Part shown: in pieces, positions 2,518 through 57,808 of the stretch
Layout of the letters: the number at the start of each line of letters is the position of its first letter
How positions within the stretch are numbered: the stretch's first letter is position 1
Source: Cyanidioschyzon merolae
Taxonomy: Eukaryota
Assembly (NCBI GenBank): GCA_000091205.1
Contig: AP006486.2
Reading direction: 5' to 3' (one strand)
Length of the DNA stretch: 64,000 bases
Made by a program: the position numbers and the translations under genes
The notes under the pieces: model-generated
What the model was told of the DNA's origin: nothing
Database searches by the model: none
Seen by the model: the letters and a program-made list of their open reading frames with translations, nothing else

Positions 2518-5500
2518 GCGACGGCAGGTTGGCTTGGCGTGCCCCGACGTGTCTCCTCGACAAGCATGCATGAAGGAGATGACGCACGACGTTCACGAAG
2601 GCATCGGTTTTTTTCTTGTTCCGAAGGGTTGCCCGTGCGGTGCTTGTGCCTGAACAGCTACTGCTACAGGAGCCGCGTTGATTTCATGGCATCTGAGCAT
2701 TGGTTCATAGCGTGCTGCAGATGAGCAGATCAGGTGGCATCCTCGGTGAACTCGACGAGACACGGCAAGGCGACTTGGAGACAGCGCCTCTGGATCTGGG
2801 TACTGCGCGCCCTCATGCTGCTTTGCGAGCAGTGTACGAAGACACTCGACTGTGATGTACTCATGAGTCGTAGCAGACCCGTATGCAGTGCTCGCTGTCC
2901 GGGTGGCTGCAACTTAGTTGGAGGCACAGCTCTCTGCCCGATACCGACGAAAAGCGCCCGTGCGACCTGGTTAGCACAGAGAGATCGGGGCACGGCTCTT
3001 GACGGGAAACCGGGCAACGAATCGAAAACCTTTGATGATTCCATAGCGGTTTGGTTTCACAGCGACATCGAACCGGGACGGGGCATGAGCGTTGCGCAAG
3101 GCGCCACGAACGCTGGTGTTACCCCCGGAGTGCTACGTAAAAGCCTCCCGACAGCTGCATTGGTTGATTCTCTGGAATGGCGAGCCAAGGCTCTCTATGA
3201 TCGTTTGTTAATTGCCCTGGGAAACCTTTCCCAGTGTATATATATGGATTGAAGAACTGTACCATGCCAGTGTCATGTTCGAGACGGGACTGCAATGCCC
3301 TGTGTCTTGGCCACTGATTACCGCATTGCAAGTCTGCAGCGTTTCAGCATAATGCCCGCACTGAGTACAACACCACTTCCGTCGACAGCGCACGCTGTAG
3401 AAATCGTATGGACGCTCCCGATGCACAGGATATTTCCGGATGTTGATCGAGGCGTCCCAATCTGGATGCAGGAACTGCTTACACGCGTATTTGCCGATAG
3501 ACTTATACTGTGGAACGTATCTCAACGTCGATAGCCTCGCTATTAGAGGTTCGATAAACTTGCCATACTCGATTTCACGCGTCCGGCGATGTTGCACGTT
3601 CGTCGTGTCTACGAGGTTAGCGTTGCACCCGTGCTCGTGTTCGGTTAAGATCGCCCTGAATCCATCAAAGCGAAACGTGCAGCATCGGTTCCCGGACTAT
3701 GGTATGCGCACGTCGAAGGAGCTGGAGCGCAGCCTTTACACGTTGCAGCACGTCCGCCACTGTACGCTACCATTACACCAAGGTATCGTATCAATCAAGT
3801 TGTATGCATCTCATTCAGAATTCGGTGAATGCACGCGCTTTGTCTCGGCATAACGGAAACCGTTAGCGAGCCCAGCGCACTCTCATGTAGGTATGCCAAT
3901 GAGCATTTGCGTACGCCACTGGGACCATCATGCATTCTTTCTACACGAAGCGTACAAAGCATCGCTCTTCGGGTGATGCGGTGCACTGAGGCTCGACCTG
4001 CGTTCTCATTCTGGTATTCCACTCGCTGAACTGCCTCTAGACGCCCATGATGTCCGACGCCATCGCATACCAAAGCCTGAAATATTCGAGCAGCCTCGTA
4101 TGCGTTCCGTACAGATCTTCGGTTCCATCGTCTTTTCTAGGAGGTACGGCGACGGACATGGCGACCTTCAGCCCGGGATGCACAGCCGACCCCGAGTCCT
4201 TCTCTTCATCAGCGTCAAATGCTTGAGAATGAGTCCCGTTGGTCAACTGAGGCAAACGATTCACACAGTGCATTCAGAATGATGCTGTGTCGGTCTGCAT
4301 CGTCCCAGTGAGTGCCGTACCAGTATGCCCCTGTAGACAATGAGACTTGAGCCAGCATCGCCAATGCTGTCTGCGAGCGAGTTCGTCTGCTTCATAGCGC
4401 TGCACGCGGACACTAGCAGTGCCTCATTGAGAAGGTCGTACTGCACGCTACACGAGAGAACGCCCAGATGCCCTGAGTTTTGACGTGACCTGTGCGGACC
4501 ACATCGACTAGAAACTGAAGTACACTCGCGTACGCCGAGGGACGCTATTTTGCGCTTGAGCGCTCTGTACAGGATAATCTGGTGGTGCACGATACAACGA
4601 GGGTGTGCATCGAGCTCAGACCATGATTCGGATGGTACGTCCGTCGGTCCGAAACCCACAGCCGCACGATGAGCTCGGATGATCCGAAGCGACACTCGCT
4701 CTCATGGCGACAGCGCTTCCTAACTCGCTTCCATCTCGAGCGCTCTTCGCCGCCACGAACTCGGCATTTGAATCCATCGAGACCTACCCAGAATACCGTC
4801 CATAAATCCCCACGTTTCCGGCTCAACGGGATGAGGCCTCAACGCCCACACGGTGCACGTCATGAAGCGCTCGCGACGGACCCGCATATGGTACTTGAGT
4901 TTGGTTTGATAGGTTTTCGCACCTACCCTGGAGACGTTGTCTTCGATGGCCGACGTGGCGCTGCCAGGCGAGATGATCTCCTGGAACGGGGGTGTGCGAA
5001 TCTCGGATCCCACGTAGAGGCCGTCATCCATCTTCTTTCCCGAGCACCAGATGCGTTTTCATGCGACGGTTGAATGTAGAGAATTCATGGGGGATGTGCA
5101 TCGCTAAGTGCACTGCGTCCGGAACGCCTGTCGAGGACTTGCTTGCCGGGTTGCATCAAGTTGAGCGAAGCAAGCAAGTCGTCCCTCGAGCGATAAGCTG
5201 CAGGGCATCCACGACGACGTGCAACTTACTATGTAGACGATCTTCACCCTTGATTTGTTTTGCTTCACGGCCTTTAGAGCGGTTATAGTCGGGCTCTGTC
5301 GCCGAGATGGTTTGTAATTCCTGTTCTTGCACGTCTTCTCTTGGGTAGGATCTTTCTTTTTCTTGTCCGACGCGGTATTTTGCGTCTCGATGACCCAGCG
5401 GGATAGCGTAGAGGTGGTCGCTATATGCGGTATCCGCCTCTTCATGCGGACTCAGGCGCACTGGATTGCTTTTGGCCCCGAAACCCGTATTTCCTATGTA

Positions 5501-7769
5501 TGCATCTACGATTCCCAAACAACTTTTTCTCACCCTTTTCCGAGGCGAGTTTACCGACGAACCGGAGCGGGCCTATCCGCTCACTCCTGCGTACGAGCAG
5601 AGACGCAACGCAGCATTTCCAGGCTAGTGAAGTTGAATTACGATTTGTCGTGGAAGGGTTCCACGATGCCGCACGACTCCCTTTCTAATCCACGAGTCTA
5701 AACGTGGCGTTTCACGTTGAGAAGACGCTTCCAACTGCATTAAACCAGGTAGCACGTGCACCCATGAAGAGCAGAACAACACCTACTGCGGCTACGTGTT
5801 CCTTTACCGCTTCACAGGTGCGGACAGCGACGTGGCCCCAGGGCAAGACTTGCGAATGTGGTACAGAGACGGGATCAGGAATGCCTCGACGGAGGATGCT
5901 GTTTTGAAAGATCATGCCCGTTAGACAAGTGGTAAGCAACCAAGCCAAAGCACCTCCGGTACGGCTTGTGATGTCGAAATGCTGGACTGTCTCTGCTTTA
6001 TAAACAGCGGTTTGCCCCTGTTGAAGCACCCATATGCAGGCGTGCCGAGTCGCCAGAATACATTCTCTCATCGAGCGGATCAAACACACCTCATTCCTGT
6101 CGTCATCGTCCGTCATTCAGATCGAACTCGATCCTGGGTTGCTCAGCGCTCGACGGCCTCTCATTCAAGTGCAAGTTTTCATTCGTCCAAAGGTGTCCGT
6201 TTATCGCCGGTCGTGTAAACTGCACGAACGTTTCACGTTTTCTGGCTGCTTCGGCAGCGTTTCTCAGATACAGTATGGAGCAAAATGAATGAAAGAAGAG
6301 AGGATGGTGCAGATAGCCTATGATTAGTTTTGCTAAGAGTGCACAACGTTCCGGATCAGGACAACGAGAACGTGGGTTTACGCACCTCCTGCACGAAGAA
6401 AGACTGACCTGTACCGGTGAACGCGCCATGCCAACATCGAGTCTTGCACCGACGCTGCTCCGCGATACAGGACGCATGTCCTACTTTGAATACGTTCGAG
6501 AAAGACAAACAGAACCAAAAAGGATGTGTTCGTACAGGTGTGTGAGAAATACCTGATCTGAGTATAAAGCTGCTCTCGTCGATCCTGAAAACGCCTAGTA
6601 CTGGCATAGCCAAACAGACCCAAGCGGCATCGAGACGCTGCTCGAACACTCATACCGGTACAGGCATCGCCGGGAAACCCGGTCACAGGTGGCAGAACGG
6701 AAAAATGCACTTGGACCCGGCTTCCGCAAAAGCAGGAGCAAAGCCATCCTGTCTTGCAAGATCGACCACGGTGATGCTGCAAATTCCAAAATTAATCTCA
6801 GCGTCGCGTAACTCGTTGGGTGCATCTAGTCAATATTCCATGAAGCAGATGTTCACTGAGGGTCCACGAACGCAGAGGCGTGCTCAGGCGGGCAAGGTTC
6901 TCTGCCCGTGTGCCTGGTGGCTATTGCGCTCCCGCAGTTTCTGATTAGACTCATCGATCTTACACTAGAACGAAAAAAGGAACGCGGGCACCAAGCGTGT
7001 ACCTCGAAGTGCCGTTCTACGGCGCCGTAGCGAACTGGCGTTGAATAATGGTGGTTCCGGTACATCGATCACGCTGCCGCTTGGCAAACAGTGAGTCTAG
7101 ACGGCAGTCAATCTCATGTGGCGTGTACAATCATGAGCTGATGATCACCAAATGATTTTCGGTTGCAAAATTCCAGCTCTTTGTTGGACACGCGCTGACT
7201 GTGAGTAAACACGGACGCTGTCTGTGGCTTTTGGGGCTCTCTCTCCTCTCTTCATAGAGAAGATCACTTGGCAAGATGACGCTGTACAAATGCAGTGCAT
7301 TCTGCGAGATGAAGCTGTTTCGAGCCGACTGCGATACCCAGTCGAGATCACTGTATACGGGGTGCTGAGCATAGGCCTTGATGTGGAGCTGTCGGCTGCC
7401 GCATCAATGCAGTTCCCCCGGGATGCAACCCGGTTCCAGCAACGGGCACCTGCAGTGCCGCTGCCGATCCGGTTTCGAACGAGCATCCGCAGACCCTGTT
7501 CTACGCCTCATTCAACGATCCGAGATAGCCACGGATGCAGCGCGCCCGTAGAGGCGTCTTCGACGATATTCCAGCGTTGGATATCGATTTCAGTCATCCC
7601 ATTCCTGATATCGCAATGCGACATACCCAGAAATGCAGCGGATTCAATGCAGCCTCGCCGGTGATTCCCCAGCTTTGGTTATCCATTCCCAGCGGGTGGA
7701 CTCGATGCAGTGCAGTTGGCAACAGGAGATCTCTGGTCGGTGACTTGGCGTCTGCGCCGACCCAGTGCG

Positions 7770-14704: not shown

Positions 14705-15924
14705 CAGCAGCTACTGCACAACAACATCCACCGCCACCTTTCGTCGAGGAGCAAGCACCAGCCGGTGAGGCTGTGCAGCGGTTACACACCGCAGCAACGC
14801 GCTACGGCCTCAACATGCATCCAAATGAGTCAAACGTGACAAAACAACGGGAACTAGTCACTGATGTGTTGCACCTGTACCGGCAGACGCGATACGGACC
14901 CGTCACTAGCAACCCGATAACAGTGTCGTTGCAGCTTCATGGAAAGCATCGCAAGCGGGGGAAAGGTTTCCGTACTCTGGAACGTTTACTTTCTAGGTGG
15001 ACGGTTCCGCGAGCGGGACTAGACTGCCAGGTCTGGTGCTTCTTGCTCGGCCCAGTGTGGCGGGTGCTTTCGTGAGATCTGAACAGCTCGTCCACAACGC
15101 AGTTTATTCTGGGACTAGGGGCCGGTTATTTGCATCCGGGTGTCGTCCTGGTTGCGGTGGTCTCCGAGCATATCGCTTCGCCTAGTCGCCGGCATTCGGT
15201 TTGTTTGCGCAGCGTACCGGCCCGCACGGCGTGATCATGTAGCCCGCGGACCCTCTATCAAGGGAAGCATTCCTCGTGCCGACCCACCGCCAGTTATATG
15301 ACAAGGCCGTTCCGCGTACGTGCTGCATCCGCACCGGCGGTCTAGGCGCTATGGCGGGTGCAGCAAGGCAAGCACTCGGCATACGCTAGAACGTACGAAC
15401 ACGACCAGTGCATCCGAGAGGAAGAAGACGTGATGGAACTTTGAGGTAGAGTGCATCGTCATGGACGCTTTTCCGAGTGCCAGTATGCATTCCGCAATCC
15501 GGAGTCTATGCTCAATGTAAATATTTTGTCAAACAGACAGAAAAACACACCCGGCAACGTTGAATGCCCCGCCCAGCGCCGGTGTGCGCCCCGTGCGGGA
15601 CCCGTAAGCGCCATGTGCACTGGATGAGCGCTTTGGTCTCATCGTTGAAATGATCTGGATGTTGTTGGACGTTCGATGGTTGCCATCAAGACGAGAAGAG
15701 AGCGAGTCTGCTCCAAATAGCACCCCGTTTCCCAGCGCTCAAGAACAGACGTCCGGTCGGGAACAGGGATGCGTTCAGTCGACTTCGTACATTCGAGTTT
15801 TCCGTACGCGCCGGATGCACTGCACGAGTTCCCCTACGATACAGAACACTGAGTCCGTGCTTGAATCATCAACTGAATGAAGATGTAACGAATGAGCACT
15901 GCACAGTAGCGGCGCTATCATTCA

Positions 15925-16172
15925 ATCAATCATTCACTCAATGTTTCTTTCTTTCATGCAATCATCCATTCAATCACTCATGCTTTCTTTGACTCATTCA
16001 CTCAATGTTTCTTTCTTTCATGCAATCATCCATTCAATCATTCACGCTTTCTTTCTTTCACTCATTCAATTACTCAATCTTTCCTTCTTTTCATCCAATC
16101 ATCCATTCAATTATTCACGCTTTCTTTCTTTCACTCATTCAATCACTCAATCTTTCTTTCTTTCTTTCAAAA
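15925..16172. repeat. Tandem repeat, ~64-bp unit × ~3.8, G-depleted and pyrimidine-rich on the + strand
   Basis: The unit is ~'cattcactcaatgtttctttctttcatgcaatcatccattcaatcactcatgctttctttgact' and is repeated head-to-tail. The + strand is almost G-free with (CTTT)n runs. It lies in the divergent intergenic region between RPB7 (−) and the Nudix gene (+). Confidence 0.85.
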
Positions 16173-16400
16173 TGGCTGATGCGCACGTGCTCGCCTCTGC
16201 GGTATTCGTAACGCACTCGGCGTTGCTGAACGCAACGTGTATTTTTTTGTCAAACCTATTACGTTCTGCAACTTCACGCGCACCACAAACGTCAGTGAGA
16301 AGCGTCTTCCGCGAACGACGGCTCGTTACGCGGCAGATCCACTTCACGGTAGCGTTTACAGGTCGCTTGCACGAGCTACAACGACACAGCACGGTGGGCA

Positions 16401-17177
16401 ATGTTCTGCACCTTGGCCGGCTACCGTTGGCTGAACAGTGGCTCGCTACTGAGACGTTTGTCGCAGCGAGCAGTGCGCCGCTTGCCGACAGCACCGCTGT
16501 GCCACCTGCACAACGGCGCCACTGAAAGCGCAGCCTCAAACGGAGCTCTACGCATTGTCGACGAAAAGGTTGCCTACCGACGCTATGCAACCGTGTTTGA
16601 ACGAACTGTACAGTACCCGGACGGCCGCCACGTCACTTATGACATTCTCGGTCAGCCGGCCGTTCAGAGCGCCTCGGTGCTGGTGTTTCCCTTTGATACG
16701 CAAAGCAAAACCTGCTACGTTATTCGAGAGTACTGTCCAGGTCCGAACCGTGTACTCTATGGCTTTCCAGCTGGTATGGTCGAAACGAAACACGAATCAT
16801 TGGAAGCCGCTGCTCGGGCAGAGCTTTCGGAGGAAGCACATCTGCGTTGTGCGCAACTCATCGATCTGACAGCTCAGGCCGCAGTTTGGGAGCGGTCCTT
16901 CGAAGTGCCGAATACCGCATCAGATGCTGAGAACTGTCTGCGAGGATTCTTCGCTGACAAGTACTCCCGGAATGTCTGCAAAATGTATTTGGCGTTGAAT
17001 CCCGAGCCCGATGGACACCCCGGCTCGATGGACGCTGAGGAGCTTATCGAGCAGGTTGGTGCGGTACGGGTGCCGCAGTTGGAAGCGTGGCTCTGGAGTG
17101 GTCAAATGACCATGCCACACATGCTGCTCGCGATGTGCGCGTTGACTTACCTGCGACAGCGCGGGATGCTGACGTAG
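16401..17177 (+). CDS. Nudix hydrolase (ADP-sugar/ADP-ribose pyrophosphatase-like)
   Basis: The Nudix box 'GFPAGMVETKHESLEAAARAELSEEAHL' fits GX5EX7REUXEEXGU. The upstream region 'YRRYATVFERTVQYPDGRHVTYDIL' resembles ADP-ribose pyrophosphatase N-terminal domains. The Arg/Ser-rich N-terminus (MFCTLAGYRWLNSGSLLRRLSQRAVRRL) looks like an organellar presequence. Confidence 0.7.
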   Translation: MFCTLAGYRWLNSGSLLRRLSQRAVRRLPTAPLCHLHNGATESAASNGALRIVDEKVAYRRYATVFERTVQYPDGRHVTYDILGQPAVQSASVLVFPFDTQSKTCYVIREYCPGPNRVLYGFPAGMVETKHESLEAAARAELSEEAHLRCAQLIDLTAQAAVWERSFEVPNTASDAENCLRGFFADKYSRNVCKMYLALNPEPDGHPGSMDAEELIEQVGAVRVPQLEAWLWSGQMTMPHMLLAMCALTYLRQRGMLT

Positions 17178-24113: not shown

Positions 24114-25384
24114 CAAGGCGACAGCGGCGCAGTAGGCGTGTGCGCACACAGGTTGCCATGCGAACCCCCGGGGGCGAACTGCATCACTGTCGCGAGAATT
24201 GACCGCAAATTGCGATTCCGTTTCGCGGGTCATTGAGCCGGGAAAGGGAGCCTCGATATCCCCGATGATCAGCTGTGGTTAGGTATGGATCGCACGTGGT
24301 GCTACGTCACGGATGACGCGTCTGGTCTTTCGTAGCGCAAAAGGGCACAGCATCCTCGTTCGGGTGAATGCCGCGTTGGTATTGCTGTATTCCAGCCCGT
24401 GGAAGTTGCGGATTGCGTTCGTTCGTGGATGGAGGCGGTGTACTCGTTCGCGATGCTCATGGTCGATGTTCGTCGGTGAGAGAGAGAGTTGAGATCAGCG
24501 TTTCACCAGCGTCTTGCATGGCGTGCAGCAACGCCACATGCCCCGAGCGTTTGCTCGAAGAAGAAGAATAGCCGTTCTTTGCGTATATACGCACTGGGTA
24601 AACGAGCGAGCAGATGCATGATTTCTGGTCCAGTGGTAATCACTTGAACCCGCTCGCGCCCGGCAGCGGAGTCGAGGCTCGTAAGCGCCACTGCGCCCTG
24701 CTCTCGTTTGCGTGCCTCATTTCATGCGAGTCCAGGTGCGGCTTTTTGGTGCCTGTGAATGCGGCGACCTCGGTGATAGACACTGGTGTATGCTGGGCGT
24801 TCCTTGACGCAATCTGTGTCAGCGGAGCGTCGTAGAAGGTATCGAGCATAGAACCTGCCTCCGAAAGTTAAAACTCATTTGATTTTTCATCCCGAATTCG
24901 TGATGAGAATCATATGAGCGCGTGACACAGCGTATGGAGTCACCAAGTGCGTCTAACCGGGGGAACGGTGACGCAAGTCAAATATCCGAGTCCAAGTTGA
25001 GCCGTATGCCTTCCGAAACCTTTTTCGGTTTGATTTCAGACCCAGGCAAGAGCGAACGATCACGCGCCAAAGAATGAAAGCGCACCAGCGTGGTTCTGTG
25101 GGCTCTTTGACGGGAATAGATGCCTCCAAAGTCGCCACTGCCGTCGCTGAAGCATAGCGTCGCGTTATAGACTGGGCACGGGACTGCGTAACGTCCAGGT
25201 TTTAGGGCTCGTAGCAGGTATTTCCAAGCCTGGCCGGATCGAACATTCCTAAGTAAACCGCACCATATCAAGAAAAAGAGATCGTCCTGATGACAAGCGG
25301 CATATCCAGCTTTGATCGAGCTCAGCTCCACATGTCGAATCATGGAATGCCATGATTGCTCTTCATTATCCACAGAGCATCGTT

Positions 25385-27252
25385 CCCAGTGCGAACAGGC
25401 TGCGCTCCATGCATCTGGACTGCTGAACCCGAACATACCGATACTTCGAACCAGGCGCCACGCGAATGCCCATTGCATTGACCACTGATGTTTCATAGCG
25501 GATGTCTACAGCAATTCAGTACAATGCCAATGAAGCGTACGAAACAAGTCCCTGGAGAGCTCGCTCGACGCCGTGCGATCAGGCGCTGTGGAGACATTCC
25601 ATATTTCTGGATGCTGATCGAGGCACTACTACCTCGATGCAGCAAGTGCTTGCGCACTCGGTTGCTCGTGGAATCACACCACAGAAGCCGTCCGACTTTC
25701 CATTGCCTGGCCAGCTGGGGTTTCGGCACCTTCCCGTCCAGCATCTCGTGCGACTAGCTCTGATGAAGGCACATCTTCTGTGACTGGTACACCGGGTACC
25801 GATATTCCCCGTGCGTCAATGGCTTTCTGTACGCATCGGAGGCAATCGTACGGAATCTATTCCGTCACACACACACACACACCTCAATGGAACGCTCTGA
25901 CCTACAGGCAGGAGTGCTGCCTCTGCACCGCACAACACATCCAGTGCTGTACGCTACGGCACAATGACACGAACGCTCGGTCACTTGCTTTCGCTACTCA
26001 TGGACGCAGCTGGTGAACGCTCACTCCTTGCCTCCGTCCAACAGAAAAGAGACCGTTGCCGAGCCCGACGCAGTCGTATGTCCCCCGGCTCGAAAAATCG
26101 TCTGCATGAGGAATGAACGCTTCTGCACAGTCCCTGAATGGAGCGTACGAAGCATCCGCCGCTGCTCGATACGGTGCTCAGGGCGTCGAGACGGGCCCAG
26201 ACACAGTCATGCTGCTGGCTCGTTTGCATGCTGGCGAGCATTCGGAACCCCGGCGCAGGTGAAAAGCATCATGTGCTTGCACGACTCTCCCGAGGAAAGT
26301 GCACCTAAACACTGCGTCGGTCGCCGCTGTCCCTGGAGAGCTCTCCCCGTGTACCCCTATTCATCGAGATACGAGGAGCAAGGCCCGCCAATGCATTTCG
26401 TAAAGCAGCTCGAATGCTGCACACGTGCTCCCAGAGACTAGCAGTAGACCTCTCGCAGCGCAGTGCATCCAGTAGCCAAGTATCTGTGGGCACGGAATGG
26501 GCCCTGCAGCGACGCCCCGGGAGCGCCGCCAACAGCTGCCGTTGGGGGCTAGCGCACTCGAACTCCGGGCATCCATCTGCGCTGGGCTGGGGAGCGCGCT
26601 TCAGGAAAGCGTCGTCGCGTGAGCTACGGGCAAGGAACGCAAGCATCCCATTCCAACCGTGTTACGGGCATGACGTTCGTGGATCCGAGGCCGCGAGCCG
26701 CACCAAGCGCTTCATCGATCCGAAGCGACACTCGCTCCGATCCCGACGTTTCTTCTGAGGGTTTTCTCTACGAGCTCGGGCTCTTCCGCCGCCAGCAGCG
26801 AGTCACTCGCTTTCATCGACATTGCGAGAATCGCCTGCACCAGCTCCGACTTTCCTGGTCCGTTATGCTCGGGATGATCATGCCCACAGGTTGTGCTTCT
26901 TAGAGGACTGGTCATTGGTGAGCGTATGCTTTTGCGGTGTTTTTCTGAGGATCATTGGACGCTTCTCGGCACATCCGTCGTAGACGTTTTCTTCGATCGC
27001 CGATGTGGTGCTGCGACGCCAGGGGGCACTCTGAGCAGCGAAAATGCAAATCCCTGATCCCACGATCAGTGCGTATTGCATCTCCTGCCCGTGCATCAAC
27101 TGTGTTACCAGGTGAATGTTTGACAGAAAAATCCAGCAGAAGAAGAGGGACAGCTGGCAACCCTGCGTTGGGATCCCCACGAAGCAGCTGCCTGACGAAG
27201 CATGTCAAGGCGAGTGCATCTAAGCGAGCCGTCCTCGGGTAAGAGGCTATCC
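25385..27252 (+). repeat. Dispersed direct repeat, copy A (~1.87 kb), near-identical to 47713..49663
   Basis: The six-frame ORF products inside it are identical or near-identical to those in copy B; for example 25488..25757 equals 47814..48083 and 26013..26441 roughly equals 48339..48767. Both boundaries are readable by eye, from 'ccagtgcgaacaggctgcgctccatg' to '...cgtcctcgggtaaga.gctatccaa'. It contains a (CA)7 microsatellite and one unit of the 42-bp VNTR. No recognisable protein domain is encoded. Confidence 0.85.
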
Positions 27253-29420
27253 AAACCCTGATGTTGTCCCGTGCCTCTCAACTTTGCTGGTATCAACGGC
27301 TCTGTCATGTATCCAGTAGCCTAAAAGTGACCTCTGACATCGGATAACACTCATCGGACTAGACTGACCCATGGAGCATTGGCTGGCACGAACTGCAGCT
27401 GAACGCCAATCGCAGTTATGTGTTCGTTGACGGCCTTTGAGTCATGGAAAGTGATACGGTCTTTGGGCACATCAGAATCATGTGAGAAGTAGAAGCCATA
27501 AAATGTATCGACGAAGGATGAGGTGTTGCAAGGTCCTCCCGTTTCACGATGCGTTTGCGGCGACGAGATCAATCGCCTCTGAACCTGATGTTGTCGGCAT
27601 GCTCGTCTGGCGCTTCCCCGCAAACGGCGATTCACCCGCGCTTGGGTACCCGTCTGCAGCTCTACCACATTTCCGAATAAAATCTTACGGAGTGAGACGC
27701 GCACTCGTTCCACATGCTGTAATCGCTTGTGTTGCATTTTGTAATGAACAGGGCGTGTTGCTGAACACGTGATTGTCTCCAATAGAGGTGCGCCCCGTAA
27801 AACGAGGAATGTTTCACAACCAGAGTCTATGTATGTACACTTAGTCAAAGGGCGCTTCCGAGCCATTCTCCATCGGCCTGTGTGCTATCGGATTAAGTTT
27901 CATTCGACGCACACATCGAGCGTCAGAGCTTGCCCCACAAAGTTAGATCGCCTCAGTTCTCCGGGGCTCGTATGCTGCACCATACATCGACTCACGAACA
28001 ACATGCGTGCGTTGTCGCTGGTGGAATTCATCATTACAGGGAGTCGTCGAGCTCGCGCCCTATGAGCCACTACAGTCTCGTCATCGCCCCGTCGGGTGAA
28101 CAGCTGTTCCGGCCTATCTATTTTCTTCTTCTTCGTCACTTGTTCTTCTGCGCTCGATGTTTGGCAATGAGGGATTTTTCCGTTCGTTTTCGACAGGCGG
28201 CGATGGCGGCGCTCCGGGATCCCCGAATTCCCTGTGCATAACTTTCCCTTGGAATTTTTATTTCTTCAAAATGAACCGAAATCTATATTTCCGTAGCTGC
28301 GGACCTTCTTGGAGTTTCAAGGACTCGCAGGTGAATGACGAAAAATGCACCAGTGCGCCACCGAGCTGAAGACTTCAGCGCTTCGCCGGATTGAACAATC
28401 ATTACTTTTCCCGATAGAAAGCACGCCCTCTATGGGGTTGAATCACGGTGCGTGTGTGTGTGTGGAGGAATAAACAGACGCTCTAGCCCCGACAGCATCA
28501 GCGAAAGCTCGAACACAAGCGGAATCGCACCATACCACATTGTCAAATGCACGGACGTTGTCAGATGTCGGGTGAAAAGTCTTCTATGATTCGACAAAGT
28601 CATTGGTGCTGTTGTGTGAGCCTTTCCTGCGAGCAAGACCGCGGCAACCTCATTGATGCACTGCTGCACAAAAGAACACGATAATGTCCTGGTTCTCTTC
28701 GAGTTCGATCGCACATACAGCGGACTCCTTCACCTCGAAAACATATAAACGCTCGGAAGATTTTGTTTGAAGGAAGCCTCATCGACTGAAAAAACATACT
28801 GACGTGCCTCTGCTTCATAGCGAAGGCGACTTTCCACGAACGCTCTAGTTTCGATTTCGATGCAAGATGGCCGTGAGTAAACTACGAATTACTTATTGCG
28901 ACTATATTCCGGGGTTTCCGGGACCACACGAACACGCTGTGGAGAAGCAGAGACGCCCGTTGCGACTGCGAACTTCGCTTTCGCTTTCCGTAAGGCGATC
29001 AACGGGTAGTTTTTCTATCATTGGCAGCAAGTAATCCGTGAGCATATCGGTTTTCTGCACGCAACGCATATTCTTGTTTCTTTCAGTTTTCCCCAAACAT
29101 CAGAATCCTGTGGTATGACTGATCTACAGGAGGAATGTAGCGCACCTTGCTCTGCTCCGTAAAGAATCTACCCTACGGGCAATTCGTCGACGATCTAAAC
29201 ACCACACTGCATCGTGATGTCAATCTCTTGCTCTACACTCCGAAAAAGCACTCGGTTACACCTAGTGGGATTGCAGCAACAGCGAGTTGATAGACATTAA
29301 AAGTGTCTCGTGAGAAGCTAGGATCTTGTGCCCGTTCACGAGTAATGCCCGCACATCTGGCGACTTTCCAACAGTCGGCGAAACGCTTTCCCACATCAGC
29401 ATGCACCAGCGCTGCGTCTC

Positions 29421-37852: not shown

Positions 37853-40800
37853 GGATAATAAAACCCTCGAGACGCTTCTTGCGTACAGCGAGAACCAGTA
37901 CCGATTGCGACTTGCAAGCAACGACGCGGCGGTGCCCCTGCTGAACACTCCTTAGACGCGCTTGTGCGCTTCCAAGTGCGTGTAGTTCGTGCGCTTCAAC
38001 ACCGCTCAATCGCACTGTCAAGGCCAAGCGCAAAGCTTTTTCAAGTTCACAGGCCGCAATATAGCAGAGCGCCAAGTTGGAGAAACCCGGCGCGTGTCTA
38101 TGCCAGGTGCACTCCTGCTGTGTCAGATTAGGAAACTGGTGCATTCGACTGCTCGCTCGCTTCCTACCTTGCGATATGGTACCGAACGTTTTCCTAGATT
38201 TACAGCCTCGATAGTCAAAATGCATCCACAATGGCTCACAGATCTATATGCAGCTTTGGGATTCTCATTTGTCTATTCATGGTGACTCCTTCTACGCTCT
38301 GCCGCCCGAACTTGTTACGTGATGCGAACCGACAACGCACCGCGACGTCCTCGAGCAAGGCTTCGTCAACTACCCGATAACATCATCCATTTCATATGCG
38401 CATGGATCCAAGTTGTGCCCTTCCCTTACAACTAGGCAGCTCAAATCATGTAATTTTCAAGTTTTCGATTTCTGTGGTCCAAGGCAGCTCGTTCGAGTTG
38501 CGTCTCGCGCCACTGAACTGATGAAGCAAAAACTCTACATCGTCCTCAAAGAATTGTTCACAAGTTCTTGCCGAAACCTCAGTGGACTTGTCATATGAGA
38601 TCATCGATTCCGCTCGATAAACACATCCGTCTCTTATCGTGTCCATTGACGAAACACGATTCGATACCAGCGCGATACCTGTCGCGGGATATGCCACCAG
38701 AGGCTGGTGTCTCTTCTGTTTGCCTGGAAGCGGGCTCTTGGACTCGGACCGCACGCTCCGCAGCGATCATGTCCAATAGGGCGTGCGCCACTGCTTTGCA
38801 CGAACGACGTATAGACGAATCGAGATTTCTCGACTTGTTCAGCTCGAGTTTTCCTTCTCGGTTCTAGTTTCTGCCTGCACAACATCGCGTTCCACAAATG
38901 CTCCGTCGCATGGAGAAGGGTGCGCTCGCACATGCAGCGGACAACATACTCGCCGATAGGATCGCACTGAAGAAGCCACGTCAGCGGACACGGAGACGGA
39001 TGCGGGCATCAGGGGAAGCCATTTGTACCCGTCAAGGACATGTACCGAGCGATGACATGAGCTTTCGTATGCGAGAGAGCAGCGCTCGAAACAGGACGGA
39101 TCGTGGTGGACCTAACGGAACACCCGACCAGAATCAAGCGCCGCCTCTGCAAAGCGCACATCGAGCTGGTAAACGAAGAACATGAATAGAGCGAGTGAAG
39201 CGTAGATCGCAAGTCCAATCTGCTTATGGAGTACAGCGTCAACCGCCTGAAGCTGCGAAATCCGGAACTGAACGCTGCCACCATCGTCATTCGGCTGCTG
39301 ACAACGGTGCTCGAGGCACAGGAGAGACCAGCGCCCATCGAACAGGCACGAGAGAGAGGAAAAGGGAGCAGTCGCAGTCGGAGCCAGCAACAGTATCCAG
39401 AAACGTAAACACTAGTGCGCACACGCGTGTTCGAGGACCCGTTCCATTTTGCTCTGACATGAATGTATGGAAACAGCCCTCGGGAGCGTACCCCAGACGA
39501 CTCAAAACGCTGGACACGGTGCGATCGCCTCCAGCGCTGCATCCTTGTCGCCAGTACGCTGTCGGATGGCATACGTGCACCGCATTCTAGCGGATACCGG
39601 GTTGCAGCGTTTGTTACCTAGAACCATAACTGCGCTCCCAGAGGATTCTGATTCGATCAGCGAGTGTCTATCGTGAACAAGCTCATCCCATGTCGCTGCG
39701 TGTATCGGAATCGCTCGCTCTACGTAGCGTTCAAAAGGGCAAGCAACACCAGACTTCTTTGATGCAAGCGGCGGCGTTCTGGACACGGAAACGAGCAGGG
39801 CTTCGCTCTTGCGATACACGCAATGGAGCAGTCTGCCATTCCCAAGAGTATGTATCAGAGAACGCTGTCAGCCGTGATAGTGATACTCGAGAAAGTATGC
39901 AATACATCCGAACGAGCCGTCTATCCGGCATACTGTCCCCCGACGCTTCCGACGTTACGGATGTTCGTCTCGAGTAGCTGACTGTACACCACAAAAAATC
40001 TGGGCCTCGAGCGCCTGCATGAAGTTCCTCTCGCGAAGCTGCACACACCCTTGGCGCTATATCATGCTTCGCGTCGCACATATGCTCGTATCGACTCCGT
40101 GACAATGTTCCAAACACGGATAACTGGAACCACGCGCAATCTTCATAGGGCCAGGCGTGAAAACTCACAGATAGGCAGCGACGCCTCAGAGCATATCGCT
40201 AGACCCACGAGCGTTCTGGGGAATACACTCCGTGATTCTACAGTCCAGCGGGTTCTTCGTCGACCGGGAAGAATCGGAAAACGGATCATTCGCCACACCG
40301 GTCCTTTGGAGGCAAAGGAAATGAACAAAGTGCATCACGGGTATTTCAGGAAATGCAGCATGGTGGTGTCTTTCTCGACTTTTGTCCTGTGTCAGTGGCG
40401 ACGTCGATAAAGTTGCCGCCGAAGATGCATTGACGGCATGCATGTTCCGCAGTCCCGGCGAATTGTCGATAGACACTTGGACGAGTGACTCGCATCACGA
40501 CTCAAGTCGTCGCTCCATTCGACGATTCAAGAGGCAACTCCTACGCATACCAACAGTTCCCCGTATGTAAGCAAGTTCTGCGAGAAGCGGTCGCACCTTG
40601 TGGGATGCATCACGAGCCAGCAACGTGCGAGGCGTCAACAGAGCGGTGCTCGGCGTTCCGGCGTCCGCGCAAGACCTTTACCGAACCCAGTGCGAGATGC
40701 CGCCGCAGCCGCAACCACCACCACCACCTCCAGTTGACGATCACTAGACGCGTACAGAGCATCTATGCGGCATCCAGGCGCAACGGATCCCGCGGAGCTA

Positions 40801-41810
40801 CGTGGCGGACCTGGTGCAAGCGACCGCTCTGGACGCTGCGGCAGCTTGTGAACCAAACGCTGCGGCAAGCAGCGCTCGCTGACCTGGACACATATGCCGG
40901 AGAGAGCGCGTTCAGGTGCACTCGGCTGGTTCGCTCGTAAAGCATAGAGTCTATTTAGTTCCTAGACATGCAGTAGTTTGCCTCTTCTTTGAGCGGTGCT
41001 TACCCGCACGAACCAGGCTCCGCTCTAGAACTTTGATGCACACCGGCCGCTCGCCAAACAGGACTACCATACCCAAACGCCGTGCTGCTCCGCTAAGAAA
41101 GGCCTCTACTGTCGTCCGTTCGGTCTTGGTATACGCTAGGTCGAACACCAACGCATTCTCACCATCCGCATTAGAACGGAAACCCTGTGCCTTTGTTTTC
41201 GCTTGCATAACGTCGGGAGATCATTTCTTCCAGTCCCAGGACCCTACGTGAGAAACGCGACTCGGACGACCCACCAGCCGTCAATGTAAGCCTATGAACC
41301 CCTAAACTACTCGTCCAAACAACATTCTATCCGCCCTGGAGGCAGTAAAGTGGTGAAACGCTCGTGGAAGCGCTATGGGTTCAACACCAGCGACTTCCCG
41401 TGTCGCTGCATCCGGCAGGGCGTTTGCGTCAACACGACCATCTCCCGTCGTTTTCATATGGTATAAACGCATGTTTCCGAGTGGTGCTCCAGTCGCTACG
41501 CCCGCTTGGTTGCCCATAGCTACACGCGCAGTCAGAACAACGCCCAGCATTGAAAACAAAGGAAAGCAGCACCAGAGTCATACTTGGAAACTTGACGAGT
41601 GCGAAGCGTTGGCTTCGGGAGTGCACGAACGCGTCTCTGTCCCGGTTGAGGACGCCAGGTTGCTGTGACGCTGGCAAGTCCGCGAAGCGCTCAGCGTGTC
41701 GGCACTAGGACTCGGAAAGGGCGCTTTTCTGAGCACGCTTGGGAGGTCGCATCGTGGCAGTTGCCGGTACGGTACCCTGTGTTGTGTTCAGCTCGGGGAA
41801 ACTGCTTGAA

Positions 41811-45328: not shown

Positions 45329-46342
45329 AGCAACGCAACCAACATCAACAACTGAGACAGTACAAGTCGTTCGGTTGGCACTGGTGCGCCCACGAAGTGC
45401 TGCGATTCTTTCACATGAATTCTGTTCCAGGTCCAGGTAGGGGTTCCCATTGCTTTTTCACGGATTATAGCAGATTTGTTGAAAGCGCGTTCATCTGAAG
45501 CGATAAAAAATCCAAGGCGAAGATATGAGCATGGTCGTTGGCGATCCCGGAGGCCCGTCATTGCCAGCTGCAGAAAAGCCAAAAATTCTCATGTCGTCGA
45601 TTTTCGATCGAAGAAGCGCAAATGACGAGGAGGAATACGACGACGAAAAAGCGGGGACGCAGACGATGACGGGTGCTTACCCGACGCGACGATCACGAGA
45701 ATACATTGGCACTGGGAGCACGACTTCGAGGAAACCATGCATGAATGCGTTCTATCAGTGTCACTGCGTACTTGGAGTTTCTGAACCGAGACTCGAACGC
45801 CGTCATTCAGTATCAGTCGCTGAGTGTACTGCATAACGGGCAAACACATTTGTTTGGTATTCAAAACACGGATTCTAACCTGCTTTCAGGTACAGCTTGG
45901 CGGTAGCGTGTCCACTGCAACGCGAGGAGCGCGCAGAGCATCGCCTACCACTCGGACGAGCTCGGGAAGCGAACCTCTGCCTCTGTCGACTGGGCAGGTG
46001 CCGTCAGGAAAAAGCGCCGCTCGGAGAGAGAGACGGTGATAGTCGGCTATCGGAAACAGGTACCGCTGGACCTGCTGAGCGAGTCGCTGTTCGACGAGCT
46101 TCACTGGTGCGGCGCAGCACCCGGGTCGAGGCAGTTTGCTTCACTGTGCGTGCTACACACTCGGTACCCGCCGTGCTCTGTGCAGCGCTGATTCATCACT
46201 GCACGGGTAAATTACAAAGCGGATCTTGGTTTGCGCTCAGCTGCGACTTAGTCTGGACTGGAAGGAAAACTCGTGTGCTTGGTGCGTGTGTGTCCGGGAA
46301 ACTTGTACCATTAGACCGCACGTACGGCATCGCGTTTCGTTG

Positions 46343-47137: not shown

Positions 47138-47712
47138 TCAAGCTATCGTTTATCGTGATTGCGTTGTTAGCTGAGAGGTATCTTCAAATTTGAAGAATGT
47201 TGATTGATGATTCAGTGCTGAAAGGTTTGTAGAGCGCCTCCGAATGGCGCTATCTGTTCCAGCTAATCGATACTTTTTCGGGTCCGTGACGGTCAACGAG
47301 TCGATTTCGGGGAGAGGTCAGGATGTTTGGTATGCCCAGGCGAGCGTGTCCTCTGTCCATAGAGAGTGTGTTGGTGTTGTCTCAGATAAGCAGGATGCTC
47401 TTCATCGATACCATCGCAACTATGCAGGGGAATAGCAGTAGCAATCCAGCTACGATCCAGGCACCCAGCGTGCTCAATGGCAACACAACGACTTGCTGCT
47501 AGTGATTGCCAGTCCCGCGAATCCGTAATGACTGCAGGCCTGCTGCGGCTTGGGAATCGATATGGCGTAAGGAAAACGCATAGCATGATGATCGGTTTCA
47601 TGGTCCGAGAGAAAAGCATACACGGTAGCTTGTGCGCTTGTCGAGGTATACTCAGTAGTTCCAATGTGTGGAACATCATGAACGTGTACCTATTGCACTG
47701 TACATACATCTC

Positions 47713-49663
47713 CAGTGCGAACAGGCTGCGCTCCATGTATCTGGACTGCTGAACCCGAACATACCGATACTTCGAACCAGGCGCCACGCGAATGCCCATT
47801 GCATTGACCACTGATGTTTCATAGCGGATGTCTACAGCAATTCAGTACAATGCCAATGAAGCGTACGAAACAAGTCCCTGGAGAGCTCGCTCGACGCCGT
47901 GCGATCAGGCGCTGTGGAGACATTCCATATTTCTGGATGCTGATCGAGGCACTACTACCTCGATGCAGCAAGTGCTTGCGCACTCGGTTGCTCGTGGAAT
48001 CACACCACAGAAGCCGTCCGACTTTCCATTGCCTGGCCAGCTGGGGTTTCGGCACCTTCCCGTCCAGCATCTCGTGCGACTAGCTCTGATGAAGGCACAT
48101 CTTCTGTGACTGGTACACCGGGTACCGATATTCCCCGTGCGTCAATGGCTTTCTGTACGCATCGGAGGCAATCGTACGGAATCTATTCCGTCACACACAC
48201 ACACACACCTCAATGGAACGCTCTGACCTACAGGCAGGAGTGCTGCCTCTGCACCGCACAACACATCCAGTGCTGTACGCTACGGCACAATGACACGAAC
48301 GCTCGGTCACTTGCTTTCGCTACTCATGGACGCAGCTGGTGAACGCTCACTCCTTGCCTCCGTCCAACAGAAAAGAGACCGTTGCCGAGCCCGGCGCAGT
48401 CGTATGTCCTCCGGCTCGAAAAATCGTCTGCATGAGGAATGAACGCTTCTGCACAGTCCCTGAATGGAGCGTACGAAGCATCCGCCGCTGCTCGATACGG
48501 TGCTCAGGGCGTCGAGACGGGCCCAGACACAGTCATGCTGCTGGCTCGTTTGCATGCTGGCGAGCATTCCGAACCCCGGCGCAGGTGAAAAGCATCATGT
48601 GCTTGCACGACTCTCCCGAGGAAAGTGCACCTAAACACTGCGTCGGTCGCCGCTGTCCCTGGAGAGCTCTCCCCGTGTACCCCTATTCATCGAGATACGA
48701 GGAGCGAGGCCCGCCAATGCATTTCGTAAAGCAGCTCGAATGCTGCACACGTGCTCCCAGAGACTAGCAGTAGACCTCTCGCAGCGCAGTGCATCCAGTA
48801 GCCAAGTATCTGTGGGCACGGAATGGGCCCTGCAGCGACGCCCCGGGAGCGCCGCCAACAGCTGCCGTTGGGGGCTAGCGCACTCGCACTCCGGGCATCC
48901 ATCTGCGCTGGGCTGGGGAGCGCACTCGCACTCCGGGCATCCATCTGCGCTGGGCTGGGGAGCGCACTCGAACTCCGGGCATCCATCTGCGCTGGGCTGG
49001 GGAGCGCGCTTCAGGAAAGCGTCGTCGCGTGAGCTACGGGCAAGGAACGCAAGCATCCCATTCCAACCGTGTTACGGGCATGACGTTCGTGGATCCGAGG
49101 CCGCGAGCCGCACCAAGCGCTTCATCGATCCGAAGCGACACTCGCTCCGATCCCGACGTTTCTTCTGAGGGTTTTCTCTACGAGCTCGGGCTCTTCCGCC
49201 GCCAGCAGCGAGTCACTCGCTTTCATCGACATTGCGAGAATCGCCTGCACCAGCTCCGACTTTCCTGGTCCGTTATGCTCGGGATGATCATGCCCACAGG
49301 TTGTGCTTCTTAGAGGACTGGTCATTGGTGAGCGTATGCTTTTGCGGTGTTTTTCTGAGGATCATTGGACGCTTCTCGGCACATCCGTCGTAGACGTTTT
49401 CTTCGATCGCCGATGTGGTGCTGCGACGCCAGGGGGCACTCTGAGCAGCGAAAATGCAAATCCCTGATCCCACGATCAGTGCGTATTGCATCTCCTGCCC
49501 GTGCATCAACTGTGTTACCAGGTGAATGTTTGACAGAAAAATCCAGCAGAAGAAGAGGGACAGCTGGCAACCCTGCGTTGGGATCCCCACGAAGCAGCTG
49601 CCTGACGAAGCATGTCAAGGCGAGTGCATCTAGGCGAGCCGTCCTCGGGTAAGAAGCTATCCA
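47713..49663 (+). repeat. Dispersed direct repeat, copy B (~1.95 kb), near-identical to 25385..27252 but with the internal 42-bp VNTR expanded to 3 units
   Basis: See copy A. Only a few point differences are visible, for example 26059 'gacgcag' versus 48405 'ggcgcag'. It is longer than copy A because of the VNTR. Confidence 0.85.
48879..49004. repeat. 42-bp in-frame tandem repeat (VNTR), 3 units here versus 1 unit at ~26537..26578 in copy A
   Basis: 'cgcactcgcactccgggcatccatctgcgctgggctggggag' occurs three times with one variant unit ('cgaact'). It accounts for the 141-aa versus 113-aa minus-strand ORFs and the extra 'HSHSGHPSALGWGA' and 'APQPSADGCPECEC' units. Confidence 0.9.
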
Positions 49664-51753
49664 AGCCCCACGGCCTCCTGTATCTCGGCTTTTTCGAAAA
49701 TTCTTCCCGTGGATCTGTTTCAGGTGGAGTGCCTTGAGAAGGGTTTCAGAAATATCTTTCCTCTTCGGTATTTCTCATACGTCTCTCTTCCTAGGAATTG
49801 TCTTTCCCTTCTTCGTTCAGTTGCTTGGTCCTTTTATTCATCTGCGGCTTGTCGTTGACATCGCGGTGTAGCGAGAATGTGATCCCTCTAATCTGTATCG
49901 ATTTTGTTCATGGGGATTCATAGCCACTGATTTCACTGTTCCGCTGAAACTCACCTGTATTCTAGACGTATATACCTGCTTTTCGGAAACTGCATCTTCG
50001 TCACGTCCTCCGTTGTGATGACGTCTATGAGCAGAGGCGCGGCATGGCGCTCCTTATCCCACGCCTGCAGAGACGCAAAGAGCCATTCAGTGCTGGAAAA
50101 CTTTGTAGAGAACGGCATGTTGAATAACTGTGTCAAAGAGGCGAACGTATCATCTATTGACCCGTGAGTGTTAGCTTGGCATATGATAACAGAGCGGACA
50201 GCTTGGACTCGACTGAGCCAGGGAACATCGAGGCGTAAGAAGAGCAGCGTACCTGGAGTCACAGCTGCGTAATCCTTGACAGCTTTCAAGTGATGGAACG
50301 CAACATATTCGAACAGCGGCACAAAAAATGTGGGAAGCAGGAGGCATGAAGCTTGCCCCGATGAAAGGCAAAGTACTGAATGATCATGACCGCATGGCAA
50401 CTCGTCGGCGACTATACGATAGAATCGCCGCTAGGTCTGACATTGTCCTCATTCTCGGATGACTCCTGTTTGCAACCAGCGGTCGATGCTTTTTTTTTCG
50501 TTCGCAAGCCGGCCACTGCTTCTCTCAAACAGCGTCCCATCGAGTTTGACGAATACCGTTCGATCCGGTGATGAGCACTCGCGCTTTCGTTCGAGATCGA
50601 TAGACGGTTACTGAACGCACGACTGCCTCCCGCAGAAGCGTACTTGTTTCTTTGTCCACCCGGGTCGCTTCATCATAATTCGCATTAAAGATGCCGAAGC
50701 TTCACGGTACGGCGCTATTTCGGTAGTATTCTTTCGCTAAGGTTAGAGATTGACTTGGATGGACAAGGAAAAATTCATGTACATGGAGTTTGCTTTGCTC
50801 TGTCTTGGTTGTACGAGGTCAAGCATCAACACTAGGAGAAGCGGGCGTCATCCACCTGCGGATGGTAGAATAACTTTCTTCCAGCATTAAGAGCGTTTCC
50901 CTCCCAAGCAAGCAATAGTAGCGTACGTTCTTGTCGTGGCATTTCTCGAATCACCAGAATACATTGCTTTTGTTGAATACGTGAGAGAAAATCAACCGAG
51001 AACGTAGAGAGTGTGCAGGTGCATGTGTTCGAGCATCCCCCGTTCTGAGTATAACGCAGCTGACGCTGGGCATATACGTACATGCTTGAGCACCCGCAGC
51101 TGCCACCTCTGCTTGCTGATTCGTCTCACATCTCTAAAGTGACCTTGGTACGCGTCGACAAGCGTATCGCATCACCAAAGCGAAGTGATCTCGATTCGTC
51201 GATGCGTCTTAGACCCCTTACGTGACCTGGGCACTAGCACATACGCACATCGCATCTCTATATCGCTCTTGCTCAATTCCGAAGCAGTGCTGCTAGGTTA
51301 CAGGGTCCATCGTCCCGCTGATGAACTGACTATGGGCATCGAAATCAACAAAAGTGCAGCTCGTTGCAGTATGCAGCTTCCCGAGCCAATCGCCCTACAT
51401 ACCATGGCAAAGCAAGCGCTCACTTTACTGGTCAGGGAACCCTCGTTGCATATGAGGGAGAAAGGTCGCAAGAAACCCATATTGCAAGGCTGTGTCTGCA
51501 ATCCTCAAGCGGAACGCTTCATGACATAACAACACATATCGCATGCGGAATGAACGTGCACCGACCTCCTGACCTTGAATACAATACGACATTCAGAAGC
51601 AAGAGTACACCAACGAAACGGTACCAACTGAAGATGCTTGGATAAAGCTGGTATCGACCTTGATCATCCGCGACGGCATGCAGCGCTTCACGATAAGGCA
51701 GCAGCACGCGCCGCAGTGCCTTCCTCGTCACTGGGCATCCAGCAGGACTCGGG

Positions 51754-53814: not shown

Positions 53815-54068
53815 GCATCGTCGCGCTCACTACGTCACGCCAAGCGGTTTTCCAGTAACAAGCTGAATGCCAGCAAGTATGAGGACGACTGGCGAGCTTG
53901 CCGTTCGTTGCCAAGCTCGATCGTTTCGAGCCAAAACACCGAGGCAGCTCTGTCAGGACACGATGATGAGAGAGCGTTCCTGTCTTCAGAATTATCTATG
54001 CAGGCCGAGAGACCAGAATACTGTCAATCCGTACGTTCAGGCTATGTGGAGGTACTCCGAGCGATAAA

Positions 54069-54128
54069 CGAACGTCGTTGCGAACGTCGTTGCGAACGTC
54101 GTTGCGAACGTCGTTGCGAACGCGTTGC
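54069..54128. repeat. 12-bp tandem repeat (cgaacgtcgttg)×4 plus a degenerate unit
   Basis: It is seen directly in the sequence, in the region upstream of the minus-strand membrane-protein gene. Confidence 0.9.
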
Positions 54129-57100: not shown

Positions 57101-57552
57101 CATCGTGCCGGGGCATGAAGCGGCTTCGTGTCGAACACAGTTTCCAGGGTATCGTTGCCTACGCTGTATCGAGCAGCATTTCAAAACGCCGACGACTTTC
57201 GATGAACAAACACCCAATGGTCGCAAGGCAAGGGTTACGTCTCCTACCTTGATGAATCCACCGATACCGTACGTCCAGCAGTCTGCAAAGTGAGAGGCCT
57301 CATCTCCGAGCACACTGGGAACGATCTTCCTCTCCAAGCGTTGAACGATCCCAGTGCTCTATTCTAATTGTTTGCGTCCGAGTATCAGCTATGCGCTTCC
57401 TTCTGCATCCCAGAATCAATGAAATAAAACACGAGCGTTTACGCGTTGTCGATGAAATCCTCCTCGTGCTCCTCTTACTCGCTCAGTCTCAATGCGCTTT
57501 CTCGACACATCCGCCGCCTGCTGAATCACACACAAAATGCGTGCATCGACAA

Positions 57553-57709
57553 GCACGCACGCACGCACGCACGCATGCACGCATGCACGCATGCATACCG
57601 CACAGACACAGCATGCGTGCATGCGCGGCAACGGTGGTTAATGACGGCGGTGGTGCGTTTTGTGCAGTGCGTTTGCGCTTATTCGAACGCTTGTGTGTGT
57701 GTGTGTGTG
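57553..57709. repeat. Compound microsatellites: (CACG)5(CATGCACG)n at ~57553–57595 and (GT)9 at ~57692–57709
   Basis: 'cacgcacgcacgcacgcacgcatgcacgcatgcacgcatgcat' and 'gtgtgtgtgtgtgtgtgtgg' lie ~100–250 bp upstream of the FHA-protein start codon. Confidence 0.9.
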
Positions 57710-57808
57710 GAGGACGCAACGGTTGCAGTACCTGAAACCTGCATCCTTGCTACTGGGGGTTTTACGTCCAAGTAGAGACTCTGGTGTAGAACAAAACGCA
57801 CCTCGTGG

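Follow-up and report, generated by a model that had tools for sequence, protein, structure and literature searches.

A near-identical 1.9-kb tract shared by two probable DDE_3 transposon relics is best explained by ectopic gene conversion

Two tracts of about 1.9 kb, lying 22 kb apart, are almost identical in the window (the whole 64-kb stretch of DNA that was analysed). The shared tract, named R, most probably arose when one of two old DDE_3 transposon relics was copied onto the other by ectopic (interlocus) gene conversion, and we give this reading a probability of roughly 0.7. R does not stand alone as an element but forms an interior part of the members of a diverged ~3.4-kb interspersed repeat family derived from a transposon, with R copy 1 inside family copy A and R copy 2 inside family copy C. 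An earlier reading made without database searches (the sequence-only reading) had offered a very recent duplication, ongoing gene conversion, or a mobile or satellite-like element. Gene conversion fits the results best, and neither a very recent simple duplication nor an active mobile or satellite element was supported.

The two copies of R and the variable-number tandem repeat (VNTR) within them were mapped as follows.

25386-27258, plus strand: R copy 1, 1873 bp, inside family copy A; 99.5% identical to 47712-49668
47712-49668, plus strand: R copy 2, 1957 bp, inside family copy C
26551-26597, no strand assigned: VNTR locus of R copy 1, 42-bp unit, ~1.1 copies
48877-49007, no strand assigned: VNTR locus of R copy 2, 42-bp tandem repeat, 3.1 copies, TRF score 255

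The copies are in direct orientation, 22,326 bp from start to start. Self-BLAST and a repeat finder gave two high-scoring segment pairs (HSPs), one pairing 25386-26597 with 47712-48923 (1212 bp, 6 mismatches) and the other pairing 26551-27258 with 48961-49668 (708 bp, 3 mismatches). Copy 1 differs from copy 2 by 9 SNPs and an 84-bp (2 x 42 bp) VNTR, the difference in length being due to the number of 42-bp units. A (CA)n run is also found within R. Identity is lost sharply at either end, and the last 36 bp hold three of the nine SNPs. These results bear out the near-identical repeat described in the sequence-only reading, whose coordinates were wrong by only 1-6 nt.

That reading had treated R as an isolated two-copy sequence, which did not hold. 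Six-frame self-comparison, followed by nhmmer, placed R in a diverged ~3.4-kb family that has four or more members in the 64-kb window (A, C, E0 and ED), with others elsewhere (L031 and L028).

25332-27791, plus strand: family copy A, "short" type; nhmmer matches to the other copies at E-values of 1e-20 to 1e-40
47669-51161, plus strand: family copy C, "long" type, ~3.5 kb; nhmmer, E=7e-152 against L031
3177-6581, plus strand: family copy E0, diverged and full-length; 50-60% identical to A and C across the R part and the H part
54839-57360, minus strand: family copy ED, diverged and inverted, with internal deletions; nhmmer and four-way alignment

The H part is the family sequence that adjoins R. 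Copy A is without a ~440-bp segment that follows R and has other internal deletions as well. With nhmmer, 47669-51068 of copy C aligned to 3188-6581 of E0 (E=7e-142), and 49852-51161 of copy C aligned to 56118-54839 of ED (E=4e-59). L031, which gave the match to copy C listed above, is a further full-length copy on another contig, probably from the same organism. L028 is a partial copy that occurs in three SRA-derived assemblies, and its DNA can be aligned with each of the four window copies. In the four-way alignment, family pairs are ~50-60% identical along the element (52-63% by pair); the sole exception is A with C inside R, where identity is 99-100%. The members are dispersed over non-homologous sites, and the sequence is missing from the syntenic spacers of two relatives.

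Identity between A and C changes abruptly along their length. Inside R it is 93-100 per 100 aligned columns, and in the H part it is ~55-58%. Over the H part, the A-C value of 57% lies among those of the other pairs (51-68%) and the tree is star-like. Beyond R, A and C resemble each other no more than they resemble the rest of the family. On the right, 27356-27629 and 50205-50481 share 62% DNA identity (168/271), with a Smith-Waterman score of 44 compared with 13.7+-1.2 in shuffles. The distance from the right edge of R to this homologous stretch is 97 bp for copy 1 and 536 bp for copy 2. Two features mark the edges of the tract.

25341-25391, plus strand: left edge of R, with the CCAGTG block preceded by 45 nt in which old family homology persists
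49669-50164, plus strand: ~410-470-bp segment present in C, E0, ED and L031 and missing from A and L028, as defined by a six-way junction alignment and nhmmer coordinates

The CCAGTG block stands at the exact left edge of R and is kept in all four window copies. In the 45 nt to its left, compared in an anchored, ungapped alignment, pairs other than A-C share 20-23 of 45 positions (p 5e-4 to 9e-3). A and C share only 17 of 45, and A still has 22-23 of 45 in common with E0 and ED. The right edge of R lies within about 10 bp of the ~440-bp structural breakpoint between A and C, and A is colinear with L028 through this boundary in a single HSP (E=2e-45). R is therefore a patch of identity inside two members whose structural subtypes differ, which means that A and C did not arise by a recent duplication of the whole element. 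On both sides, the high-identity tract is flanked by older, more diverged homology that is in register.

This mosaic of A-C identity is best fitted by gene conversion. The same is true of the tract edges at heterology, the GC content and the restriction of near-identical R to two genomic contexts. GC content is 57.5-58.2% in R compared with 52.0-54.2% in the corresponding stretch of E0, ED and L031; GC-biased conversion would give such an increase, and the increase is suggestive only. The two contexts were the only ones found in a 24-mer scan of metagenome contigs and in an exact look-up of a 67-aa ORF of R.

The family, the relic and the mosaic are direct observations; the mechanism and direction of conversion, and any continuation of it, are inferred. 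A and C are old, dead relics in intergenic spacers, lying in the same orientation and, outside R, as diverged from each other as any family pair (~57-62% identity). During homology-guided repair without a crossover, one relic would have served as the template and 1.87 kb of the other would have been overwritten. The tract would have been bounded on the left by the conserved block and on the right by the ~440-bp indel heterology. Once identical, the two R copies could have been kept alike by further conversion. A point against this reading is that members only ~55-60% identical are too unlike for classical homologous recombination to be initiated. The first copying would therefore have required either an earlier, more similar state of the two relics or microhomology-primed repair at short conserved blocks.

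Another possible explanation, although an unlikely one, is that A and C paired long ago, when they had more sequence in common, with R homogenised continuously since then while the parts past the indel escaped conversion and diverged in place. Such long-term concerted evolution gives the same mosaic pattern with a tract edge at the indel, and it explains how recombination could start, since the copies were once similar. Against this, the H part of A resembles that of C no more than those of other members, and the tree is star-like. The ~440-bp gap common to A and L028 suggests that A and C come from different subfamilies. Also, the part that escaped homogenisation would have to be near saturation while R stays at 99.5%.

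The origin of the family was traced through the sequence just past the right edge of R, where transposase relics were detected.

27318-27527, minus strand: decayed DDE_3 relic of copy A; Pfam DDE_3 E=3.7e-4, 20.8 bits (sub-threshold; gathering score, 28.6)
50205-50481, minus strand: homologous relic of copy C; 62% DNA identity to 27356-27629, ORF-to-ORF BLASTP E=2e-4

The relic adjoins R, 60-100 bp past its right edge. In copy A it corresponds to the C-terminal part of the catalytic domain, and the match reads through one stop codon. A majority consensus of the four copies scored 20.2 bits for DDE_3, which is again below 28.6, and Pfam searches of the right flank of copy C, of E0 and of ED gave no matches. 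A HMMER scan of 1.8 billion representative proteins returned P0128, which is 45% identical to the copy A ORF over 55 aa (library-wide E=4e-5). P0128 is encoded on L028 and scores 57.4 bits for DDE_3 (E=2e-15), with its DN...NPVE-type motifs kept; at the last acidic position, the copy A relic has VSLVR where P0128 has NPVE. Because P0128 on L028 scores as DDE_3 and L028 aligns with the window copies, the family appears to be the relic of an IS630/Tc1/mariner-type (DDE_3) DNA transposon, an assignment that reaches the window copies through transitive homology at sub-threshold scores.

Every family copy seen is dead. The relic is broken by stop codons, and no intact ORF with a catalytic DDE/D triad was found. 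There is no long ORF in any family copy, and consensus reconstruction restored none. Neither the window nor the homologues returned by the searches included an intact transposase. Inverted repeats between the ends were no stronger than in shuffles in any family copy, and neither terminal inverted repeats (TIRs) nor target-site duplications (TSDs) were recovered at the approximate ends of the element. In the HMMER library search, the ORF in the H part of copy A (the transposase relic) had no close paralogue. Its sole match above 51% identity was P0126, at 98%, and we regard P0126 as the counterpart of this locus in a different strain. The missing paralogue is a further detail in favour of conversion. 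P0127, from the same search, is an unrelated fn3-repeat protein.

The window carries ~18 intron-less genes on both strands and has 55% GC. Its PRMT1 is 80% identical to the protein of a related uncultured alga and 67% identical to that of Cyanidium caldarium, and its FBPase is 66% identical to that of Cyanidiococcus yangmingshanensis. These identities place the host, an intron-poor alga of hot springs, among the red algae of the Cyanidiophyceae. C. yangmingshanensis and one other relative share the whole gene order across and past the 22-kb interval, in agreement with the earlier statement that ordinary housekeeping genes lie between the copies. The spacers differ in length. Those that bear R are 5.3 kb here compared with ~1.5 kb in relatives (PRMT1 to PDDEXK) and 4.6 kb compared with 1.3 kb (Pex22-like gene to the 686-aa gene), so that the relatives' spacers are shorter by 3.3-3.8 kb. 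For the orthologue of the 686-aa gene, one contig was too short to reach the syntenic spacer. Another two spacers are also ~3 kb longer in the window than in relatives. No R or H sequence was found at the syntenic loci of C. yangmingshanensis and the other relative. Since synteny is kept while the relatives' spacers are short and contain neither R nor H, the islands are lineage-specific insertions.

This origin of both host islands, together with the membership of R in a transposon-derived family, the near identity of its copies and their sharp edges, could also be read as a sign that R reached the two sites in separate insertions, as a young non-autonomous mobile element or a chimeric subfamily with recent activity. 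We consider this improbable. Near-identical R has two copies only, and on both sides they lie in register within old family sequence. The termini of a transposon are expected to be its best-conserved part, and yet A and C have diverged in the terminal 45 nt to the left of R. An active element is also at odds with the missing transposase described above. As the sequence-only reading had noted, no TIRs, LTR ends or TSDs were found at the edges of R in searches of both the edges and the ends. An LTR retrotransposon or solo LTR was also considered and rejected. R begins with CCAGTG and ends with CCAA(A/G)CCC, unlike the TG...CA of LTRs; there is no TSD, no reverse transcriptase (RT) or integrase match was obtained in the searches of R, and the genes between the copies are syntenic housekeeping genes.

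R shows no sign of genes. Pfam gave no match inside R, either with every ORF of at least 50 aa or with island A translated in six frames. Hexamer scoring, with the window genes as training set, showed no coding signal at any point of 24.1-29.4 kb and 47.1-51.75 kb, with values of at most ~0.1 in the islands compared with ~0.5 for genes. The six-frame Pfam search and the hexamer score thus uphold the earlier view that R is without a transposase, integrase or RT and without coding signal. That view had made one exception for a minus-strand "Walker-A-like" HNGPGKSEL fragment, which proved to be a chance match. Its E-values (SMC_N 0.05, ABC_tran 0.14) fall far short of the cut-offs, and the stretch has no conserved counterpart in E0 and has been deleted from ED. 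A tRNA scan found nothing. Rfam gave no match in the whole window at the gathering threshold and none over R at E<=1. Sliding-window RNA folding picked out one 200-nt stretch, 26286-26485 on the minus strand, with an unusually stable fold (z=-3.8, 0/200 shuffles). A structured ncRNA gene was rejected, as there is no Rfam match and this sole stable hairpin is not kept in the other copies. R is most likely non-functional relic DNA.

One observation is not predicted by conversion alone, namely the low divergence of R between strains. This divergence is 0.46% for R, 0.2-0.6% for coding sequence and 1.16% for the adjoining relic DNA. R was less diverged than its flanks in two of three strain comparisons (Fisher p=3e-4 and 0.02), and the effect vanishes with L007. 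A coding-like rate together with the stable hairpin would be expected if R were a functional non-coding unit (an lncRNA, a regulatory or insulator sequence, or a replication-related one) that was domesticated from the transposon, with selection keeping the loci alike, with or without conversion. Several results make this a poor prospect. The same stretch is 50-60% identical in other family copies, so there is no family-wide conservation, and the hairpin is not kept in E0, ED or L031. R is missing from the syntenic loci of related species, and it contains a polymorphic VNTR and a (CA)n run. The low divergence, lost when L007 is compared, could stem from assembler consensus. A related and still less probable reading is that R is a transposon-derived non-coding module kept alike by use (as lncRNA, in chromatin or in replication), or that the pair of direct repeats serves regulated excision or amplification, with the 20.5-kb housekeeping-gene interval as the unit excised or amplified. 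We keep it in view because of the lower between-strain divergence of R and the locally stable hairpin.

Assembly support for both copies was checked against independent contigs. The window is ~99.2-99.4% identical to JGI metagenome contigs that carry its genes, which were found by exact-protein look-up, and therefore these contigs represent another strain or assembly. R copy 1 is bridged with both of its own flanks by L015, a contig from another sample, and R copy 2 is bridged in the same way by L007 and L008, which are independent assemblies. Because independent contigs bridge each copy with its own unique flanks, an assembly misjoin is ruled out. Short-read contigs from several samples do end within R (L002-L004 and L009-L014), as expected of a true two-copy repeat. 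The possibility that one R copy is an artefact of collapse or misjoin, which these contig ends might suggest, is refuted for practical purposes by the bridging contigs, by the 9 SNPs and VNTR that separate the copies in the window, and by the fact that a true two-copy repeat would itself produce such breaks.

Gene conversion between A and C may have happened more than once. The two R copies differ by 0.5% in the window, the between-strain divergence of neutral flanks is ~1.2%, and R is present at both loci in every sampled strain. Taken together, these values are mild evidence for repeated conversion events. The case for conversion that is still ongoing is weak. Among the variable sites, 15/36 are polymorphic at both R loci, and short-read assemblies probably collapse both copies. 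The R copies of the JGI contig show 2 differences, compared with 9-13 between assemblies. Both differences lie in the last 60 bp, and therefore the pattern fits a collapsed short-read consensus that was threaded twice. The shared polymorphisms and the two-site difference are as concerted evolution predicts, but we do not count them as strong proof of ongoing conversion, since they also fit a collapsed short-read repeat.

Ectopic gene conversion among dispersed repeats is familiar from yeast Ty elements, from pairs of plant retrotransposon LTRs and from human Alu and L1. PMC7251063 deals, in part at least, with gene conversion in an LTR case. R resembles these systems in being a high-identity, GC-enriched tract within older, diverged paralogues, with edges at heterology, and its copies are direct repeats of a single chromosome where no crossover is evident. 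It differs from them in the A-C background of ~57-62%, which is far lower than that of usual partners, in the length of the tract (1.87 kb) and in its host lineage, which is very poor in transposable elements (TEs). The family resembles IS630/Tc1/mariner elements (Pfam DDE_3, PF13358) in its relic of the C-terminal half of the catalytic domain and its dispersed intergenic copies. It differs in having no intact ORF, TIRs or TA duplications, and the window copies score below the Pfam threshold. At ~3.4 kb, with ~1.9 kb of non-coding-looking R downstream of the relic, it is also longer than a typical Tc1/mariner element.

As 1.9-kb direct repeats of 99.5% identity flanking a 20.5-kb gene interval, the R copies also resemble the low-copy repeats that mediate non-allelic homologous recombination. 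They differ from these in that no recombinant junction (deletion or duplication) was found in any contig examined. Deletion of the 20.5-kb interval would probably be lethal, as conserved housekeeping genes lie inside it.

A second comparison concerns an interspersed repetitive element of Cyanidioschyzon merolae, reported as novel by Nozaki et al. 2007, with 253 copies of mean length 3.2 kb that make up ~5% of the genome (PMC1955436). Its truncated ORF is weakly similar to WSV486 of WSSV (PMC1955436), for which the literature gave no function. Compared by description, the family and this element share the algal class of the host, a size of ~3.2-3.4 kb, a scattered intergenic distribution and truncated ORFs only, and both are far more abundant than recognised transposons. 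They differ in that the C. merolae element has not been tied to a DDE transposase, and in the higher density here (4 copies in 64 kb). From size, distribution and host class, the family may be this unexplained 253-copy element.

The repeat is thus ordinary in kind. It is most probably a gene-converted patch common to two old DDE_3 relics and neither a new element nor a new gene, and what looked striking is reduced to an ordinary repair by-product of two dead transposon copies. Templated copying between partners that are ~60% identical elsewhere is unusual for homologous recombination. The density of DDE_3-derived relics (4 in 64 kb) where relatives have short spacers bears on the gain and loss of DNA in compact, TE-poor genomes. 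The family may also explain the unclassified 3.2-kb element of C. merolae; if the two are the same, that element would be a DDE_3 transposon relic.

Divergence between strains was calculated for R, the near-identical tract present twice in the window, and for its flanks by comparing the window with the metagenome contig sequences L006, L005, L015, and L007. R differed by approximately 0.46%, coding sequence by 0.2-0.6%, and the adjoining relic DNA, old family sequence flanking R, by approximately 1.2%. The deficit of R relative to the relic DNA was significant (Fisher p=3e-4) and was missing when the window was set against L007. The deficit could stem from assembler consensus, from biased conversion, or from constraint. 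In the JGI contig Ga0078972_1000415 (L005/L006), each copy of R has one 42 bp unit, and all differences between the copies fall in the 60 bp next to the right edge, suggesting that the assembler collapsed R in this contig. Among the other short-read contigs, L014 may contain the 3-unit VNTR allele of copy 2.

On the minus strand, window positions 26286-26485 in R are predicted to fold as RNA into a long imperfect hairpin (-87 kcal/mol; z=-3.8), which was reached by 0 of 200 shuffles. The same fold is predicted for the corresponding part of copy 2. It was not conserved among the family copies E0, ED, and L031.

Four intergenic spacers in the window exceed the syntenic spacers of Cyanidiococcus yangmingshanensis and another relative by approximately 2.8-3.8 kb, while the remaining spacers are similar in size to those of the same two relatives. 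Three of the four contain a copy of the ~3.4 kb family, the exception being the spacer at 37.9-41.7 kb:
24114-29420, with family copy
37950-41740, without family copy
47138-51753, with family copy
53815-57808, with family copy

Next to copy 2 of R lies a gene:
51754-53814, minus strand, 686 aa protein
This protein has no Pfam domain. The gene is fast-evolving and lineage-restricted, since only a single distant homologue (38% identity) was found among 5.8 billion proteins.

Family copy ED is flanked by short tandem arrays:
54069-54128, CGAACGTCGTTG x5
57553-57595, GCACGCAT x5
A degenerate 32/64 bp array rich in CATTCA/CTTTCTTT (15917-16164; ~3.3-5.5 units) lies directly upstream of the NUDIX gene, within the spurious-looking ORF 15941-16525.

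Besides the ~3.4 kb family, nhmmer detected at least two further diverged repeat families (E 1e-8 to 1e-23):
38031-38490 and 5-487, inverted pair
27987-28279 and 45485-45789, inverted pair
L031 positions 3815-4227 and 1924-2169, further occurrences on that contig
These families are unrelated to R, suggesting that several old repeats are dispersed in the genome.
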